Assembly (NCBI GenBank): GCA_965219955.1 | Contig: OZ244799.1 | Location: 608,001-672,000, forward strand | Length of the DNA: 64,000 nucleotides | DNA from: a bacterium | GTDB taxonomy: Bacteria > UBA8248 | Reading direction: 5' to 3' | Shown here: piece after piece, positions 23,802 to 29,923 of the stretch | Position numbering within the stretch: position 1 is the stretch's first letter | Layout of the letters: every line of letters starts with the position of its first letter | Notes under the pieces: generated by a model | The model's input: the letters and a program-made list of their open reading frames with translations, nothing else | What the model was told of the DNA's origin: nothing | Databases searched by the model: none | Program-made: the position numbers and the translations under genes

Positions 23802-24791
23802 GTGGCCACCAGGGCGAAGCGAAGATCGGCAAAACCGAAGAGGTTGACGAAAAAGGACCTGAACGCGATGTACCGCAACATGCTGCGCATCCGCCGCTTC
23901 GAGGAGAAGACGGACGAGTTCTTCATGGCGGGACGGGTGAAGGGCGCGGTCCACGTGAGCATCGGGCAGGAGGCGTGCTCGGTCGGCGTCTGCACCGCGC
24001 TGAACGACGAGGACGCCATCCTCACCACCCACCGGGGCCACGGGCACTCCATCGCCAAGGGCACCCGGATGCCCGAGATGATGGCCGAGCTTTTGGGCAA
24101 GTCCACCGGGCTATGCAAGGCGCGGGGCGGCTCCATGCACATCGCCGATATTTCCAAGGGCCACTACGGCGCGCACTCCATCGTGGGGGCGAACATGCCG
24201 ATGGCGACGGGGATGGGCCTCGCCTACCAGCTCGAAGGCGCGGGCCGCGTGGCGGTGGTCTTCTTCGGGGACGGCGCCTCGAACCAGGGCAGCTTCCACG
24301 AGTCGATGAACCTGTGCGCCATCTGGAAGCTGCCGGTCATCTTCTTCTGCGAGAACAACCACTACGCGGTGAGCTACCACGTGGAGCGCTCCACCGCCGT
24401 CAAGGACATCAGCGTGCGCGCGCAGGGCTACGACTCGCCGGGCGTGACGGTGGACGGCATGGACGTGGTGGCCGTCTACGAGGCGACGGCGGAGGCCGTG
24501 CGCCGCGCGCGCGAGGGCGGCGGCCCCAGCCTCATCGAGGCGAAGACCTACCGCTTCTTCGGCCACTCGCGCGGCGACCCCCAGTTCGGCCCCTACCGCA
24601 CGAAAGAAGAGGTGGACGAGTGGAGAAAGCGCGATCCGCTCACGATCGCGGCCGACATGCTGAAACTCACCGAAGCGCAGAAAAAGGCGCACCTGAAAGC
24701 CGTGGACAAGGAGTTGAACGGGGCCATCGACTTTGCGGAGGGCAGCCCCGAGGCCACGCTCGAATCGGCACTCGAGGACGTATACGCCTAG
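23802..24791 (+). CDS. TPP-dependent dehydrogenase E1 alpha subunit (AcoA/PdhA-like)
   Basis: GQEA, GGSMH, FGDGA...ENN and TYRFFGHS motifs. Confidence 0.93.
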   Translation: MATRAKRRSAKPKRLTKKDLNAMYRNMLRIRRFEEKTDEFFMAGRVKGAVHVSIGQEACSVGVCTALNDEDAILTTHRGHGHSIAKGTRMPEMMAELLGKSTGLCKARGGSMHIADISKGHYGAHSIVGANMPMATGMGLAYQLEGAGRVAVVFFGDGASNQGSFHESMNLCAIWKLPVIFFCENNHYAVSYHVERSTAVKDISVRAQGYDSPGVTVDGMDVVAVYEATAEAVRRAREGGGPSLIEAKTYRFFGHSRGDPQFGPYRTKEEVDEWRKRDPLTIAADMLKLTEAQKKAHLKAVDKELNGAIDFAEGSPEATLESALEDVYA

Positions 24792-24821
24792 AAGAGGGGA
24801 TGGTGGAATCACTGACCCCTG

Positions 24822-25333
24822 GGGGGGTGTTGAAAAAGCCTGTTTCGGGATCAGCGGCATGGAGGTTCATGCGGCGCAGACGCGATGGTTTTGTAGGGAC
24901 AGGCCTCCGTGCCTGTCCTGACGAAGGACAACCACGAAGAGCAGGACAGGCACGGAGGCCTGTCCCTACGGTGAACAATTCGATGATCGGGATGTCCTCT
25001 TCTCAAAGGGATGTTGAAAAAGCCCCGTGGAGCGATTTTGGTTGAACGCACGTTTTTGAAGTTCACTCCCCCCTTGAGGGGGAGTCGATGAAGCCGAGCG
25101 GTTTTTGCGAAGGCTGAATCGGTGGGGGGTAAAATGCGTTTTATTGCCAGTTCAAATTATACCCCCCACCGAATCGCTTTCGGGCTTACGCCCTCAGCTC
25201 TTCGACTCCCCCTCAAGGGGGGAGTGGTTGGTTGGCGCTCTGCAAGGGAGGAGTATAGTTTCATTCTTTTATGGTTAGCTCCATACGTGGAATCACGAAA
25301 TCATGGCTTTTTCAGCAACCCCCTCAAGGGGGA
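24822..25333. repeat. Composite REP/MITE mosaic between E1 alpha and beta
   Basis: Inverted copy of 11419-11566 plus a CCCCCTTGAGGGGG...CCCCCTCAAGGGGG element also found at 61310-61625. Confidence 0.85.
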
Positions 25334-25364
25334 ATGAGGAAAACCCAAGCAGGAGAGAAATGAG

Positions 25365-26345
25365 ATGCGAGAGATCACTTTTGTGGATGCGTTGACCGAA
25401 GCCCATCACGAGGAGATGGAGCGCGATGAGCGCGTGATCGTCATGGGCGAGGACGTGGAGCTTGCCTACGTCTTCGGCGTGACGAAGGGCCTCGCGGATA
25501 AATTCGGGCGCGACCGCGTGCGCGACACGCCCATCAGCGAACTCGGCATCGTGGGCGCGGGCGTGGGCGCCGCCATGGCGGGCTATAGGCCCATCGTCGA
25601 GATCATGTTCATGGACTTCATCATGCTGGCGATGGACCCGCTCATCAACCAGGCGGCCAAGCTGCGCTACATGCTGGGCGGGCAGTTGAGCGTGCCGCTC
25701 GTCGTGCGCACCCCCGGCGGCGGCGGCGTTCAGTACGGCCCCACGCACAGCCAGTGCCTCGAAGCCTGGTTCATGCAGATCCCGGGCATCAAGGTGGCCG
25801 CGCCGAGCGACCCCGCCGACGCCAAGGGCCTGATGTGCGCGGCGATTCGCGACGACAACCCCGTGCTCATGGTGGAGCACAAGATGCTCTACAAGATGAA
25901 GGGGCCCGTGCCCGAGGGCGAGCACGTCACCCCCTTCGGCCAGGCGGCCGTGAAGCGTGAAGGCTCGGATATCACTCTCATCGGCGTGGGCTATCAGGTG
26001 CACAATTGCCTGGCGGCGGCGGATGAACTCGCCGGGGAGGGCATCAGCGCCGAAGTGGTCGACCCCAGGACCCTGGCCCCGCTCGACACCGCGACGCTCG
26101 CCGAATCCGTCCGCAAGACGAACCGCTGCATCATCGTCGAGGAAGGGCATCTCAGAAGCGGCGTGGGTTCCGAAATATCCGCCGCCGTTCAGGAAGAGGC
26201 CTTCGACTACCTCGACGCCCCCATCGGCCGCGTGGCCGCCCTCGACGCGCCCATCCCCTTCGAGCCCCGCCTCGAGGATTTCGTGCTCCCCAACACCGCC
26301 AACGTCGTCGACGCCGCGAAAAAGGCGCTGGGGGTGAGTGTGTAG
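25365..26345 (+). CDS. TPP-dependent dehydrogenase E1 beta subunit
   Basis: GEDV, DTPISE, EIMFMDF, HSQ and DYLDAP motifs. Confidence 0.95.
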   Translation: MREITFVDALTEAHHEEMERDERVIVMGEDVELAYVFGVTKGLADKFGRDRVRDTPISELGIVGAGVGAAMAGYRPIVEIMFMDFIMLAMDPLINQAAKLRYMLGGQLSVPLVVRTPGGGGVQYGPTHSQCLEAWFMQIPGIKVAAPSDPADAKGLMCAAIRDDNPVLMVEHKMLYKMKGPVPEGEHVTPFGQAAVKREGSDITLIGVGYQVHNCLAAADELAGEGISAEVVDPRTLAPLDTATLAESVRKTNRCIIVEEGHLRSGVGSEISAAVQEEAFDYLDAPIGRVAALDAPIPFEPRLEDFVLPNTANVVDAAKKALGVSV

Positions 26346-26480
26346 GGTGATTCCGATTGATGAAGGAGAAATTGACGCGAGTGCGGAGCGAGTGTTTGCC
26401 GACCGATTCGAGAGGGTCTGGGGAACGTCGAATGTTCAGCTCACGAAGTCATGCCGCTTGAAGGTTGGTGAAAATAATAA

Positions 26481-26981
26481 ATGTTGACGAACGACGAGAT
26501 TCAAGGACTGATAACATCTCCAAAGAAGATTACGGATAAATCTCCCGCAAAATTCTACAGAGAGGTTGATGGCTCCCGACGTGGTTCTTTGACTTTGGAG
26601 AGCGTTAGCTCAGAAATAGAGCGGTTCTCCGTTTTTATCCGGCAAAACATCCGATTCATCGAGAACTATTCCATCGGCTTGCGTTATCAAATCAAAAACA
26701 AGGACTTGGGGTCCGTAACACTTATTCGCTACAATGGGCCGCATGGCGAGAGCAGCCGCGACGAAGACGGTCATTTTGGCAAACCGCATATCCACCGTAT
26801 AACGGCTGAAGAATTACAATCCGGCAGTCTTCAGCCACAGGAGAGTCATAGAGAAATTACGGATAGGTACAGCACGTTTGAAAATGCTCTTGTCGTTTTC
26901 TTCAAGGATGCGGGTATAACGAATTGGAAGGATTACTTTCCCGAGTTGAGCCAAGGGACTCTTTTCGATGGACATCGATAA
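26481..26981 (+). CDS. Hypothetical protein with RYNGPHG...PHIH motif (DUF6978-like)
   Basis: AT-rich ORF overlapping the next gene; His motif; ends in QGTLFDGHR. Confidence 0.65.
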   Translation: MLTNDEIQGLITSPKKITDKSPAKFYREVDGSRRGSLTLESVSSEIERFSVFIRQNIRFIENYSIGLRYQIKNKDLGSVTLIRYNGPHGESSRDEDGHFGKPHIHRITAEELQSGSLQPQESHREITDRYSTFENALVVFFKDAGITNWKDYFPELSQGTLFDGHR

Positions 26982-27735
26982 GGCAATCAGCCTACTCAAT
27001 GATAATGCCAAAACCGGTTTTGGTGTATATCAACGAAGGCAAGATAAATATCAACTCATCGTCCCCATACTCCATGAGGACGGCGATATGGTGGACGTGT
27101 ATTTGCAAGACAGCCCCAAAAGCGAAAACCATGTGCGCATCTGTGATTTCGGCATGGCGGTCATGCGACTTTCCTACACGTATGAAATCAACAGCCCGTC
27201 TCGACAGAAGATTTTCGACAGCATTTTGATCAACAACGGGGTTCAAAGCGAGGAAGGAAATCTTTATCTGGATACCACTCCCGAAATGCTTTACGAAAAC
27301 ATGCTGCAATTTGCGGGCTGTGTTCAGAAAGTATGCAACATGCGCTATTGGAGCAGGGAGATCGTCCGAAGCGCGTTTTACGACGATTTGAGAGATTACG
27401 CCACGACGGAATTGGCGCGGTTTCATCCGATGCCCGATGCGTGCCCGCTTCCGAATTACGAAATCATAAGTGTGGATTGGTCTCTCACGTACAAAGAACG
27501 TAGCCTTTATCTTTTTGGTATAGGGAGCAACGACAAGGCGAAAAATGTCGCCATTTCACTGCTGGAGTTTCAAAAAGCGAACTTGCCGTTTATCAGCCTG
27601 ATTGTCCATGAAGACATGGAGGAACTTGGAAGAAGGGAAAGGTTGTATCTAACTAAAAACGCGGATACACAATACCCGACACTAGGGGATTTTCAAGATA
27701 GAGCACTCTCGGATATTGAACGACTCGTGGCTTGA
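26968..27735 (+). CDS. DUF1828-like domain protein
   Basis: P...DGDMVDVYL...ICDFG motif typical of DUF1828; overlaps the upstream ORF by 14 nt. Confidence 0.7.
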   Translation: MDIDKAISLLNDNAKTGFGVYQRRQDKYQLIVPILHEDGDMVDVYLQDSPKSENHVRICDFGMAVMRLSYTYEINSPSRQKIFDSILINNGVQSEEGNLYLDTTPEMLYENMLQFAGCVQKVCNMRYWSREIVRSAFYDDLRDYATTELARFHPMPDACPLPNYEIISVDWSLTYKERSLYLFGIGSNDKAKNVAISLLEFQKANLPFISLIVHEDMEELGRRERLYLTKNADTQYPTLGDFQDRALSDIERLVA

Positions 27736-27869
27736 AGCGAGAGGTTAGAGCGGATTCAAGAATCACAGCCGGTCGGGTCTGCAGACTGTGTTAGCTGATG
27801 CCCCTTGAGTGATAACTGATGGGGTCATTGAATTCATTGCAAGGTGAGTGAAGTTTGGAGCCTGACAAC

Positions 27870-28643
27870 ATGGGAAAAAAGCAATGTTTTGTGATTCAGC
27901 CTTTTGATAAGGGTAAATTTGAAGAAAGATATGAAGATATTTTTTTTCCGGCCATAAAGGCGGCGCAAGCCGAACCGTATAGAGTTGATGAAGATGTCGC
28001 GGCCGAAAATCTCATTATTGCTATTGAAGAGGGTATCAGGAAAGCTGATGTGTGTTTTGCCGAAATAACCTCGCATAACAGAAATGTTTGGTATGAATTA
28101 GGCTATGCGATTGCTATTTTAAAGCCAGTAACAATGGTTTGCGAAGAGAGTTGTGAACTCCCATTTGATGTGAGAAGTCGCCGTGTCATCATGTATAAAG
28201 ATAAGGATGTTTCAAGTAGGCACTTTGAGCAGTTGAGAAGTGATATTACTCGTTCGATACAAGCTGCCTTGGAAAGAGCCATCAAAATCGAAAAGATTAC
28301 GGATCCTGTTTCTCCTTCCCTCAATCTTGATGAAATGCGGCAACATACTTTAACGGCTCTAGTGATAATAGCTTCCAATGCCGAGCGTGATGAAGGGGTG
28401 AGTTTATATTCTCTAAAACAAGATATGAATAATGCGGGGTTCAACGATTTGGCTACCAATCTCGCACTTAGAGAATTAGTTCAGAAACAATTCGTAACAA
28501 AACAGAATGAGGGATACGATAATCCTTTTGCTTCTTGTACAGAGAAAGCGATGGAATGGCTCTCCGCAAATCAGGACAATTTGAGCTTGAAAGAAGATAC
28601 TTCCCGTCGCGAAGAACTATCAGACGATGACATACCATTTTGA
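27870..28643 (+). CDS. Nucleoside 2-deoxyribosyltransferase/TIR-like domain plus putative wHTH, with DDDIPF tail
   Basis: CFVIQPF...RVD...ADVCFAEIT..NRNVWYELGYA...LPFDV motif set. Confidence 0.8.
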   Translation: MGKKQCFVIQPFDKGKFEERYEDIFFPAIKAAQAEPYRVDEDVAAENLIIAIEEGIRKADVCFAEITSHNRNVWYELGYAIAILKPVTMVCEESCELPFDVRSRRVIMYKDKDVSSRHFEQLRSDITRSIQAALERAIKIEKITDPVSPSLNLDEMRQHTLTALVIIASNAERDEGVSLYSLKQDMNNAGFNDLATNLALRELVQKQFVTKQNEGYDNPFASCTEKAMEWLSANQDNLSLKEDTSRREELSDDDIPF

Positions 28644-28715
28644 ATAGTAAGGGCAATCATAATGCTCGGTGAGTAGGCTCTAGTGCTCCGCTGATCGAGC
28701 GGGGAGAGGGGAAGC

Positions 28716-28820
28716 CTAGAGATTGACCTCGGCGTCGGGCGCGCCCGCCTTGAGCGCATTCATCCAGGTGAGGCACAACTCTCGCGAGCGGTAGTCGCCG
28801 TAAGCCTTGGTTTCTTTCCT
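28716..28820 (-). pseudogene. C-terminal remnant of a type IIG (Eco57I-like) restriction-modification enzyme
   Basis: Reads RKETKAYGDYRSRELCLTWMNALKAGAPDAEVNL*; no start, truncated at the REP cluster. Confidence 0.5.
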
Positions 28821-28832
28821 CGTCCCGAAAAG

Positions 28833-28970
28833 CAGGGCGGTTCACGAACCGCCCCTACAGAATGCCGGATGAAAGGGTTCCGGCATGACGGCAAAAACGG
28901 GCGGACACGGGGGTCCGCCCCTACGAGATCGCCCGATCTTTACAGCGGGCGGCTCTCGAGCCGCCCCTAC
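28833..28970. repeat. Cluster of three GTAG-family REP hairpins
   Basis: GGGCGG-N-CCGCCCCTAC occurs three times. Confidence 0.8.
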
Positions 28971-29126
28971 GGGAAGACCACCAACCGAACGAACGCGAAA
29001 AGACACCGGATTCCGCAGCTCCTCCTTCCTCAGTCGGGTCTGACACCGGAGTGACGAATAAAACGGCCCCAAACGCCCTTGCATCAGACCCGTTCGTGGA
29101 CGATATTCGGTCCATAGGAGGCGGCC

Positions 29127-29402
29127 ATGTCCCTTTCGAACCGGATAAAACCCATCAGCTACTTAAAGACGCACGCCGAGGAAATCGTCCGTACGCTCGG
29201 GGAGCGGGGGGAGCCGCTGGTGATCACCCAGAACGGGGAAGCCAAGGTGGTCATGCAGGACATCGACAGCTACGAGCGGATGCAGGAGACGCTCGCCCTG
29301 CTCAAGATTCTCGCCCTGGGCGACCGCCAGATTGAAGCCGGGCGGGCGCAACCCGCCGCCGAGGTGACGGCGCGGCTCCGGGAGCGGCTATCGGCCCGCT
29401 GA
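29127..29402 (+). CDS. Phd/YefM family antitoxin
   Basis: IKPISYLK...PLVITQNGEAKVV motif. Confidence 0.92.
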   Translation: MSLSNRIKPISYLKTHAEEIVRTLGERGEPLVITQNGEAKVVMQDIDSYERMQETLALLKILALGDRQIEAGRAQPAAEVTARLRERLSAR

Positions 29403-29497
29403 TGCTCTTCGCGGTCCATCTGAGCGAGGACGCGGTGCGCCCGGCGAACCCTCCCTCATCGCTCGGGTTCGACTCTTTGACTTATCCTCCGCCCTGA
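29402..29497 (+). pseudogene. Truncated RelE/ParE toxin (about 13 N-terminal codons)
   Basis: TGATG coupling to the antitoxin; MLFAVHLSEDAVR resembles a ParE N-terminus, then similarity stops. Confidence 0.6.
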
Positions 29498-29548
29498 GCG
29501 AAACTGGCTGTACCAGCTACTCCACGAGGACAGACCGGAGATAGCCGA

Positions 29549-29923
29549 ATGACCGAATACGAAACAGCAAACCTCGCCGTGCAACAAGACGCGCTCGCAC
29601 TGCAACAGGCCACATTTGCCCTTCAACAAGCATCGCTCGCTGTGCAACGAGCCGCCGTATGGGTCGCCGCGCTCGTCGGGGCCGCGCAGTGCAGCCTCAT
29701 CGGGGTTGGCCTCTACATCATGCGGCAGGCCTCGAAGCAGCGCGACGCCATGCACCAGGAAACCATGGAGGCGCTGAAGGTTCAACGAGAGGCGCAAAGC
29801 GAACAGCACCGGGAAACCATGAAGGCGCTGGAAGGCCAGAACAAGGCTCTGGAAAACCAGCGCGAGGCGATGATGGAACTCATCCGGCGGACGTCCGCGC
29901 CTTCCGCGCAAGGGGACGGTTGA
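29549..29923 (+). CDS. Small membrane/coiled-coil protein, dispersed homolog of the 16.5-17.8 kb family
   Basis: MTEYE...W...VG.AQC.LI..GL..M...HQETMEAL...HRETMKALE...LIRRTS pattern. Confidence 0.75.
   Translation: MTEYETANLAVQQDALALQQATFALQQASLAVQRAAVWVAALVGAAQCSLIGVGLYIMRQASKQRDAMHQETMEALKVQREAQSEQHRETMKALEGQNKALENQREAMMELIRRTSAPSAQGDG

Follow-up and report, generated by a model that had tools for sequence, protein, structure and literature searches.

The closest described counterparts of the protein reported here are, in their way of working, probably the single-protein abortive-infection (Abi) systems built on TIR-like enzymes. One of these, Swarozyc, is reported as a DUF4062 TIR-like NADase that provides single-protein anti-phage defence and is activated by the phage portal (10.64898/2026.05.01.722283). 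The effector of retron Eco1/Ec86 (PDB 7xjg, 8qbl), a nucleoside deoxyribosyltransferase (NDT)-like N-glycosidase, also acts in an abortive-infection setting. The C-terminal tip of SSB, the bacterial protein that binds single-stranded DNA (the tip is DDDIPF in Escherichia coli), is the hub by which replication, repair and recombination proteins find single-stranded DNA. We analysed a stretch of 64,000 nucleotides from a bacterium of the GTDB lineage UBA8248 (assembly GCA_965219955.1, contig OZ244799.1, positions 608,001 to 672,000; hereafter the window), in which a gene at 27870..28643 encodes a predicted enzyme of the NDT/TIR superfamily, P0001, that ends in the tip of an SSB. Across the family of this protein the tip changes in step with that of the SSB encoded by the same genome, which is a new result. 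The parts of the gene and of its product are as follows.

27855..28643, + strand: open reading frame (ORF) as it stands in the ORF list, with an ATG at 27870
27870..28643, + strand: coding sequence of the 257-residue protein P0001, stop codon included (ORF list, translation)
27870..28205, + strand: residues 1-112, NDT/TIR-superfamily Rossmann-like domain (Pfam, VIA, profile search, alignment)
28206..28307, + strand: residues 113-146, long connecting helix, 116-143 in the model (AlphaFold2 secondary structure)
28308..28577, + strand: residues 147-236, acidic winged helix of PadR/MarR type (VIA, profile search, charge)
28578..28622, + strand: residues 237-251, variable linker of low model confidence (confidence score, column entropy)
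28623..28640, + strand: residues 252-257, the DDDIPF tip, the same last six residues as in the best-scoring SSB of the genome

The start at 27870 agrees with the aligned N-termini of homologs, and the protein reads MGKKQCFVIQPF...REELSDDDIPF up to the stop (full-length form MGKKQCFVIQPF...SRREELSDDDIPF). The NDT/TIR-like domain with a catalytic glutamate that the initial annotation had read from the sequence was recovered by Pfam, by comparison with solved folds using VIA and by profile search. P0001 matches the Pfam family Nuc_deoxyrib_tr (PF05014, clan Nribosyltransf) with an E-value of 6.9e-6 and 26.6 bits, slightly below the curated cut-off of 28.8. In an alignment of 78 family members (A1), hand-picked from 120 listed homologs with near-duplicates and five of the eight non-PF proteins left out, Nuc_deoxyrib_tr is matched at E ≤ 0.01 by every member (best 2.5e-8), TIR_2 by 4 and DUF4062 by none. 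At E ≤ 1 the Pfam listing for P0001 consists of NDT, DUF5783 and TIR-type matches only, DUF4062 being absent, and PADLOC returns a weak match to its TIR effector model (5.2e-7). The residues C6, F7, Q10, P11, Y37, R38, D40, D42, C62, N70, N72, W74, E76, G78, P98, F99, D100 and Y109 are invariant throughout the alignment, Glu76 (GAA, 28095-28097) and G78 lying in the motif NRNVWYELGYA. This invariant set argues for a predicted active enzyme, with Glu76 as its presumed nucleophile.

The AlphaFold2 model built from the 78-sequence alignment (mean predicted local distance difference test (pLDDT) score of 87.7, predicted TM-score of 0.71) lays out a Rossmann-like domain (~1-112), the long helix, a winged helix (~147-236) and a low-confidence tail, with pLDDT values of 58 and 50 for the last two model blocks. 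In VIA, residues 1-138 fit MilB best (Z 14.3, root mean square deviation (rmsd) 3.0, 134 residues aligned), followed by the NDT 7o62 (Z 14.1, rmsd 2.5, 119 aligned) and by TIR domains (Z 12-13.7). With the scores for NDT, MilB/DNPH1 and TIR folds tied, the fold says NDT/TIR superfamily and no more. The only profile match to the catalytic domain among solved structures is Rcl/DNPH1 (E 0.0016), where vWfElGya of P0001 aligns with VGYELGRA of Rcl. Foldseek top matches have E-values of about 1e-4, and the list includes TIR-STING and the retron Ec86/Eco1 effector; matches in the protein atlas are solely unnamed clusters of the same family. The winged helix, considered probable in the initial annotation, is supported by the model and by two further comparisons: residues 147-248 match MarR-type repressors with Z 10.3-10.8 over ~145-250, and the PadR-family chain TA0346 matches by sequence profile (E 0.0017). 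It is acidic in 78/78 members (net charge -6.6 on average, range -10 to -2) and for that reason probably does not bind DNA; we infer a protein-contact or dimerisation module.

The SSB-type tail is exact, as had been read, and it is a trait of the family. The last six residues of P0001 are those of the best-scoring SSB of its own genome (L001, ending PMTDDDIPF). A word-indexed search of a 90%-clustered database returned 1592 homologs at E ≤ 0.001, and 112 of the 120 homologs listed end in PF (DDDIPF in 31, DDDLPF in 14). An exhaustive search of 50%-identity representatives gave 12,050 matches at E ≤ 0.001, N-domain-only relatives included; 1698 of them pass E ≤ 1e-10 and 199 pass E ≤ 1e-30. PF ends 115 of the best 150 of these cluster representatives, several of the other 35 appearing truncated or carrying other C-termini. 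Both searches thus bear out the expectation of a D(D/E)(I/L)PF tail conserved in homologs. Scanning a single genome for each of 185,579 species yielded 471 loci with a relative, of which the best 80, from at least a dozen phyla, were kept; at 69 of these best 80 the protein ends in PF. The only archaeal bin in the 80-locus set, L020, carries a tip-less member. In A1, which consists mostly of PF-ended picks, position -1 is F in 77/78 members, -2 is P in 76/78, -3 is I in 34, L in 29 and V in 8, -4 is D or E in 73/78 and -5 is likewise D or E. From position -7 upstream the column entropy exceeds 3.2 bits, and linker and tip together span 14-38 residues. By sequence and model the C-terminus follows the plan of SSB, a variable, predicted disordered linker and then a short conserved tip.

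A chance origin of the tip is countered by its rarity in the genome to which the window belongs. Of the 25,192 stop-to-stop frames of at least 80 residues that a six-frame reading gives, just 6 end in [DE][DEN][ILVMF]PF or D[DE].PF, namely P0001 and five SSB genes, so the tip is not chance. The genome holds eight matches to the SSB model (G000:C1, L001-L008). In five of the copies, full-length or partial, a Gly-Asn repeat linker leads to the tip GEDIPF, GDDIPF, GQDIPF or DSEIPF; their sequences suggest that these extra copies may be the SSBs of integrated mobile elements.

To compare the two tips genome by genome, SSB was searched for in 60 of the 80 genomes and matched in 58. The C-terminus of the best-scoring match with a PF-ended frame was used, with recourse to lower-ranked copies where the best was tail-less. 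L010, L014 and L063 were dropped for lack of a PF-ended SSB and the window genome was added, giving 56 pairs. In 48 of the 56 genomes the residue at -3 (I, L or V) is the same in the family protein and in the resident SSB, and the eight mismatched genomes include three whose members have no proper tip. Under a global shuffle the mean agreement is 21.6 and none of 20,000 shuffles reaches 48; when shuffling is confined to five coarse taxon groups, assigned by hand from record titles, the mean is 40.3 and 6/20,000 reach 48. The identity summed over the last eight residues behaves similarly: 262 is observed, against 207.6 globally (0/20,000) and 247.6 within taxa (47/20,000). Positions -4 to -9 display no co-variation with SSB beyond taxon and -3 class (2467/20,000 shuffles reach the observed value). 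Single genomes illustrate the match: EITDDDIPF ends both the family protein and the SSB of an Alloacidobacterium (Acidobacterium) metagenome-assembled genome (MAG), DEDIPF ends both in a Terriglobia MAG, and an Elusimicrobiota MAG has KKEDEVPF against KKDDEVPF. Many of the genomes are metagenome bins; mis-binning would blur such a match and could not create it.

The agreement persists when common descent is taken into account. A tree of the 80 family proteins without their last 25 residues was built by a quick IQ-TREE search, in which 17/76 inner branches are strongly supported (starred), and phylogenetically independent pairs were compared on it. Over supported branches, the tip differs in the direction of the host SSB in 5.8/6 independent pairs for state I (sign test about 0.031), in 2.9/3 for state L and in 2.9/4 for state V, where 1.1 are unchanged; no sister pair differs in the opposite direction. 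Thus L049, from a WOR-3 host (tip ELPF, SSB ALPF), stands beside L034 and L051 (both IPF/IPF), L013 (VAF/VPF) beside L064 (IPF/IPF), and L050 (VPF/VPF) is nested in an Acidobacterial IPF clade. The phylum label requires 32 changes on the tree, which implies that the gene moves between phyla and that the tip is retuned afterwards. Base composition as the source of the I/L/V agreement was rejected by inspection, low-GC Bacteroidota having Leu and high-GC Proteobacteria and Acidobacteriota Ile. On the evidence of the codons we rejected gene conversion from the resident ssb as the source of the tip. In the window 4/21 bases differ between tip and ssb, all synonymously, and over 51 pairs 114/253 identical residues (0.45) share the codon, compared with 0.40 ± 0.03 in pairs from different genomes (124/2000 shuffles are as high). 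Codon sharing being no higher than usage predicts, the match is held at the level of the peptide and was not copied from ssb.

These data bear directly on a rival idea, in which the tip is unrelated to SSB and is an intramolecular or inter-subunit element of the enzyme, its likeness to SSB being convergent chance. Classical NDT active sites do use the C-terminal residue of the neighbouring subunit, through its carboxylate, and the conserved basic residues R38, H103 and R104 of the family could bind an acidic tail. The tip nevertheless follows the resident SSB through I, L and V, including in close sisters from different phyla, and this co-variation makes a mere active-site part unlikely. In addition, a winged helix and a linker of variable length separate the tip from the catalytic domain, the model leaves the tip undocked on the enzyme (pLDDT about 50), and the motif is limited in the window's genome to SSBs and P0001. 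We regard this explanation as highly improbable.

Any account of the family has to accommodate its architecture, the conserved tip, the co-variation with SSB and the mobility across phyla, as well as the lack of a partner gene and the moderate excess of defence-type neighbours described below. We lean, tentatively, towards a stand-alone mobile conflict enzyme, most likely a single-gene Abi defence against phage or invading DNA, with the SSB-tip mimic as bait. The N-terminal NDT/TIR domain would be the effector, cleaving the N-glycosidic bond in NAD+ or a (deoxy)nucleotide via Glu76. The C-terminus is built like that of SSB, with a predicted disordered linker, an acidic tip and the terminal Pro-Phe. 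Because the tip is kept the same in kind as that of the resident SSB, it should fit the pockets that read the host SSB tip. Invader proteins that need the host tip, for instance annealases of the RecT/Red-beta type, would seize the tip of the enzyme instead; RecT/Red-beta/Erf annealases, phage helicase loaders and exonucleases are candidate bait-takers. The contact would be relayed by the acidic winged helix and the long helix, and the glycosidase, thereby released or assembled, would drain an essential metabolite. In this scheme the activity and substrate of the enzyme, its role in defence and the steps of bait and activation are what we infer. As an integrated decoy, the protein would be the first bacterial immune protein found to bait the motif-readers of invaders with a copy, matched to the host, of one of the host's short linear motifs, the SSB tip; we consider this possible, though rather doubtful.

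The bait is preferred on four grounds. A low-abundance enzyme would compete poorly with SSB for host partners. In prophages the N-domain carries other C-terminal parts, which fits effectors combined with sensors of different kinds: an annotated phage collection contained N-domain relatives only (24-34% identity), from temperate phages of Streptococcus, Staphylococcus and Dorea, all of them tip-less and with different C-termini. Single-protein TIR-like defences of a related kind are triggered when they bind a phage protein, according to the Swarozyc report (10.64898/2026.05.01.722283). Finally, phage annealases depend on the host SSB tip: in experiments reported in a preprint by Filsinger et al. 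(10.1101/2020.04.14.041095), RecT/Red-beta proteins need the 7-9 residues at the C-terminal end of the host SSB and are specific down to a single residue; Caldwell et al. 2019 (PMC6393309) and ETfinder (PMC13490951) appear to treat this dependence too.

The same host matching would arise if the tip were a constitutive tether, docking the enzyme on host readers of the SSB tip so that the glycosidase acts near forks or repair sites, since host readers co-evolve with the host tip. Among such readers are the clamp-loader subunit chi, primase, PriA, RecQ and exonuclease I. The result could be local destruction of modified nucleotides or NAD+ when foreign DNA replicates, which could still be defence. 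A tether would suit an enzyme arranged like SSB, in which a folded domain is followed by a disordered linker and then the tip, and MilB and DNPH1/Rcl, which their entry titles describe as hydroxymethylated-nucleotide enzymes, are among the best matches by fold and by profile. Yet a rare protein would have to win those pockets against SSB tails numbering in the thousands, its acidic winged helix offers no obvious second anchor on DNA, and tip-less members exist. On balance we hold a tether to be unlikely.

The genomic neighbourhood is consistent with a stand-alone gene. All-against-all clustering of the ORFs within 5 kb at the 80 loci revealed no conserved partner gene, the top neighbour cluster occurring at 5/80; two large non-family clusters proved to be antisense frames inside the family gene. 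At 44 loci at least 5 kb was available on both sides, and 37 of these were used, with the two nearest ORFs of at least 110 residues per side (148 proteins). Controls were 37 arbitrary places in the same genomes with the same ORF calling, 133 proteins coming from the 34 scanned. Matches to PADLOC at E ≤ 1e-10 were found for 19/148 neighbours at 14/37 loci and for 5/133 control proteins at 5/34 places, an excess of about 3.4-fold (Fisher p 0.009 by protein, 0.034 by locus). Counting only matches judged specific, the figures are 9/37 and 1/34 loci (p 0.014). The enrichment of defence-type neighbours is thus real but moderate.

Among the neighbours matched by PADLOC are type I, IIG and III restriction-modification proteins, a Septu-like PDC-M01 pair, TmtA, PDC-S05, PDC-S42 and PDC-M05A. 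Pfam adds restriction-modification genes at four loci (L009, with the gene set between a ResIII protein and a methylase, and L017, L039 and L048), toxin-antitoxin parts (HicA, PIN, and DarT with NADAR), AbiJ_NTD5 and an AAA_21/AAA_15 ATPase, and mobile-type genes (integrases, transposases, a primase, and TrwB and TrwC flanking the gene at L059). In a Ferruginibacter genome, a second NDT/TIR-like gene of 292 residues (L056:8767-9645; Nuc_deoxyrib_tr 4.7e-6, PADLOC TIR effector 1.7e-11) directly follows the family gene.

The mobile-type neighbours could also point to a factor serving the element that carries it, whose tip titrates or redirects host SSB partners (nucleases, helicases and restart proteins) for the establishment of a plasmid, integrative element or prophage, the NDT-like domain adjusting nucleotide pools. 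Besides L059, which has a TrwB-type coupling protein on one side and a TrwC relaxase on the other, L023 adjoins a primase-AAA_25 protein, L067 adjoins a DnaD_N/HTH_36 protein, and L025, L041, L047 and L048 lie near integrases or transposases. In 7/78 members the winged helix itself weakly matches DnaD_N, and the window genome has several extra SSB genes with similar tips. Most loci, however, lie outside recognisable conjugative or replicative modules, and the invariant catalytic residues favour an enzyme over a mere competitor.

Phage copies also speak against such a role. On viral contigs the gene is rare, with 8 loci in IMG/VR. Five related Mu-like phages carry it in a low-GC insert (0.44-0.47 against 0.57-0.58) between a Neck1-type gene (phrog_26) and the head maturation protease (phrog_328), and another IMG/VR contig has it between baseplate and tail-fibre genes. 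The inserts thus lie in structural modules and not among early or replication genes. The tips on the phage contigs L218-L222 and L224 are DDNVPF, DDPIPF and DDDIPF. Overall, an element-serving role seems quite improbable.

Several points weigh against reading P0001 as a baited defence enzyme. No functional datum was found for any member, and no model in the PADLOC library (2023) represents the family. The substrate is not readable from the predicted fold or the sequence, for which NDT, MilB/DNPH1 and TIR score alike. The undocked tip in the model leaves autoinhibition by the tip unsupported. Six of the 80 genomic members (L020, L035, L042, L048, L053 and L072) stop directly after the winged helix with neither linker nor tip; they may be natural short forms, decayed genes or assembly faults, and they imply that the tip is dispensable in some members. 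The enrichment near defence genes that the initial annotation anticipated stands as an overall excess (19/148 against 5/133), which rests on home-made ORF calls and 34 control places and includes, among neighbours and controls alike, several PADLOC matches to ATPase or methylase models of a generic kind. It does not extend to 23 of the 37 loci, where there is no PADLOC-type neighbour within two genes, and many of these loci sit among housekeeping or metabolic genes or genes matching no family. The hand-made taxon groups and the quick tree qualify the co-variation in the same sense. Lastly, co-variation does not single out the bait step, since a tether and a titration of SSB partners predict it equally.

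With these points in mind, the proposed defence enzyme can be set beside the known systems. Swarozyc is likewise a single protein with an N-terminal TIR/NDT-like domain containing a catalytic Glu, a helical stalk and accessory parts, and like the present family it lies near defence genes. It differs in that DUF4062 is matched by 0/78 members and Nuc_deoxyrib_tr by 78/78, and in that the C-terminal part here is a winged helix with an SSB-type tip. Its trigger is reported to be a phage protein.

The retron Eco1/Ec86 effector resembles P0001 in combining NDT-like and helix-turn-helix type domains (Foldseek E 1.1e-4 and 2.4e-4 for the two entries) and in its abortive-infection setting. The superposition is poor, at an rmsd of 17-19 Å, and the domain order differs. 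No reverse transcriptase lies beside the window gene, whose neighbours are DUF6978-like, DUF1828 and Phd genes, and no neighbour is conserved across the 80 loci. Rfam finds nothing above threshold in 24700-29600, sub-threshold matches to microRNA models on a hairpin at 24892-24970 being taken as chance. MilB and DNPH1/Rcl, the best fold and profile matches, are only 15-20% identical and are small metabolic N-glycosidases that have no winged helix or tail. Thoeris ThsB shares the fold class (EcThsB Z 10.8, ThsB Z 10.3), and the Pycsar TIR protein CAP12 is matched weakly (CAP12-PCTIR_TIR 0.098, beside the PADLOC TIR effector match at 5.2e-7), far below family cut-offs; the family has no ThsA partner, cyclase or other partner gene beside it.

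P0001 shares with SSB the identical last six residues of its own genome's protein, the variable disordered linker before them and, across the family, the same lineage variants IPF, LPF and VPF. It lacks the oligonucleotide-binding (OB) fold and any Pfam match to SSB (PF00436) at E ≤ 1, and its tip stands on a predicted enzyme with codons independent of ssb. By fold and motif, as judged from sequence and model, P0001 thus belongs to the NDT/TIR superfamily and is not an SSB, a DUF4062/Swarozyc protein, a retron effector or part of PDC-M24. The novelty lies in a linker and tip of SSB type that are tuned to the host. A full-text literature search, beyond whose reach lay supplementary lists of candidate systems, returned no description of such a protein and no SSB-tip tag on a non-SSB enzyme.

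In the window the gene is the last of three in an islet of low GC content (0.40-0.48 over ~26400-28650, against about 0.6-0.7 in the flanks), which is bordered and composed as follows.

25365-26345: E1-beta gene, upstream border of the islet
26400..28650, no strand assigned: low-GC islet with three + strand genes, delimited by composition, between the E1-beta and Phd/YefM genes
26481-26981, + strand: DUF6978-like gene (Pfam DUF6978 1.4e-5, below cut-off; PADLOC PDC-M24A 0.031)
26968-27735, + strand: DUF1828 gene (Pfam DUF1828 1.1e-15; PADLOC PDC-M24B 2.7e-16)
29127-29402: Phd/YefM antitoxin gene, downstream of the islet (2.8e-18)

The DUF6978-like and DUF1828 genes overlap by 14 bases, and the pair also matches phrog_27326 and phrog_5059. 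Of the defence-like neighbourhood that the initial annotation saw in the window, the low-GC islet and the PDC-M24-like pair are present; the pair is unrelated to the family, being found at 0/80 of its loci. P0001 itself matches no PDC-M24 model in PADLOC. The three islet genes were accordingly rejected as one system, congeners also holding either module alone.

The gene is horizontally mobile and stands alone, and its site is itself variable. In the window's genus the position 3' of the E1-beta gene (26346-29126; loci L172-L180) is a hotspot, which has no insert in the congeners G062 and G076. G075 carries only the DUF6978/DUF1828 pair (67% and 75% identity). Only a homolog of the tail-bearing gene is present in G068; it is 59% identical, has the tip EELSDDDIPF, may contain an early stop and adjoins an ORF that resembles, by eye, a REP-associated tyrosine transposase. 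Since the one genome has the pair without the gene and the other the gene without the pair, PDC-M24 is not the same system. G071 has at this site a 299-residue ORF in low-GC DNA that resembles, by eye, an SppA/ClpP-type protease. All three islet genes lie on one contig of another organism (coded B, run X6) at ~94% nucleotide identity over 26400-28606, so that joint travel is possible. This contig, which is of low depth, diverges from the window in the linker, its loose end still encoding ...SDDDIP, and has a one-base deletion at 27872 that may be an error.

The flanks of the islet hold short, imperfect repeat matches only, from which no attachment site is definable. Two GC-rich palindromic copies (GGGCGG...CCGCCCCTAC) at 28835-28858 and 28947-28970, just 3' of the gene, may be REP-like elements at the islet border. 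A dispersed repeat of ~220-320 bases lies at 25008-25330, in the spacer that separates the E1-alpha gene from the E1-beta gene, with many copies in the genome and its congeners at 83-96% identity. No recognisable toxin gene adjoins the Phd/YefM gene. A 124-residue ORF at 29549-29923 has weak holin-like matches and paralogous copies elsewhere in the genome (G000:C1:2017024-2017546). A promoter and terminator scan of 26300-29200 gave counts near those of shuffles, and the sole RNA library, a sponge metatranscriptome (X1), covers 27058-27282 of the neighbouring gene at ~94% identity and nothing of the tail-bearing gene.

The family is widespread and carries a copy of the SSB tip that is retuned in each new host, which shows that genetic conflicts use the SSB hub as a target or as a handle. 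If P0001 serves defence, mimicry of a motif as bait would add a sensing principle to the triggers of bacterial immunity. Were the decoy true, phage escape would cost the phage its hold on host SSB, and a computable rule for transfer between hosts would follow, namely that the tip must equal the host SSB tip; E. coli, having the same DDDIPF tip, offers a simple test system. If the tip is instead a tether or a titrating device, it would still be an SSB-tip tag on a non-SSB enzyme, of which the full-text search, within its reach, found no other. Taken together, the host-matched tip points to a new means by which a protein that is probably anti-phage could serve as bait for the proteins of replication and recombination or dock on them.

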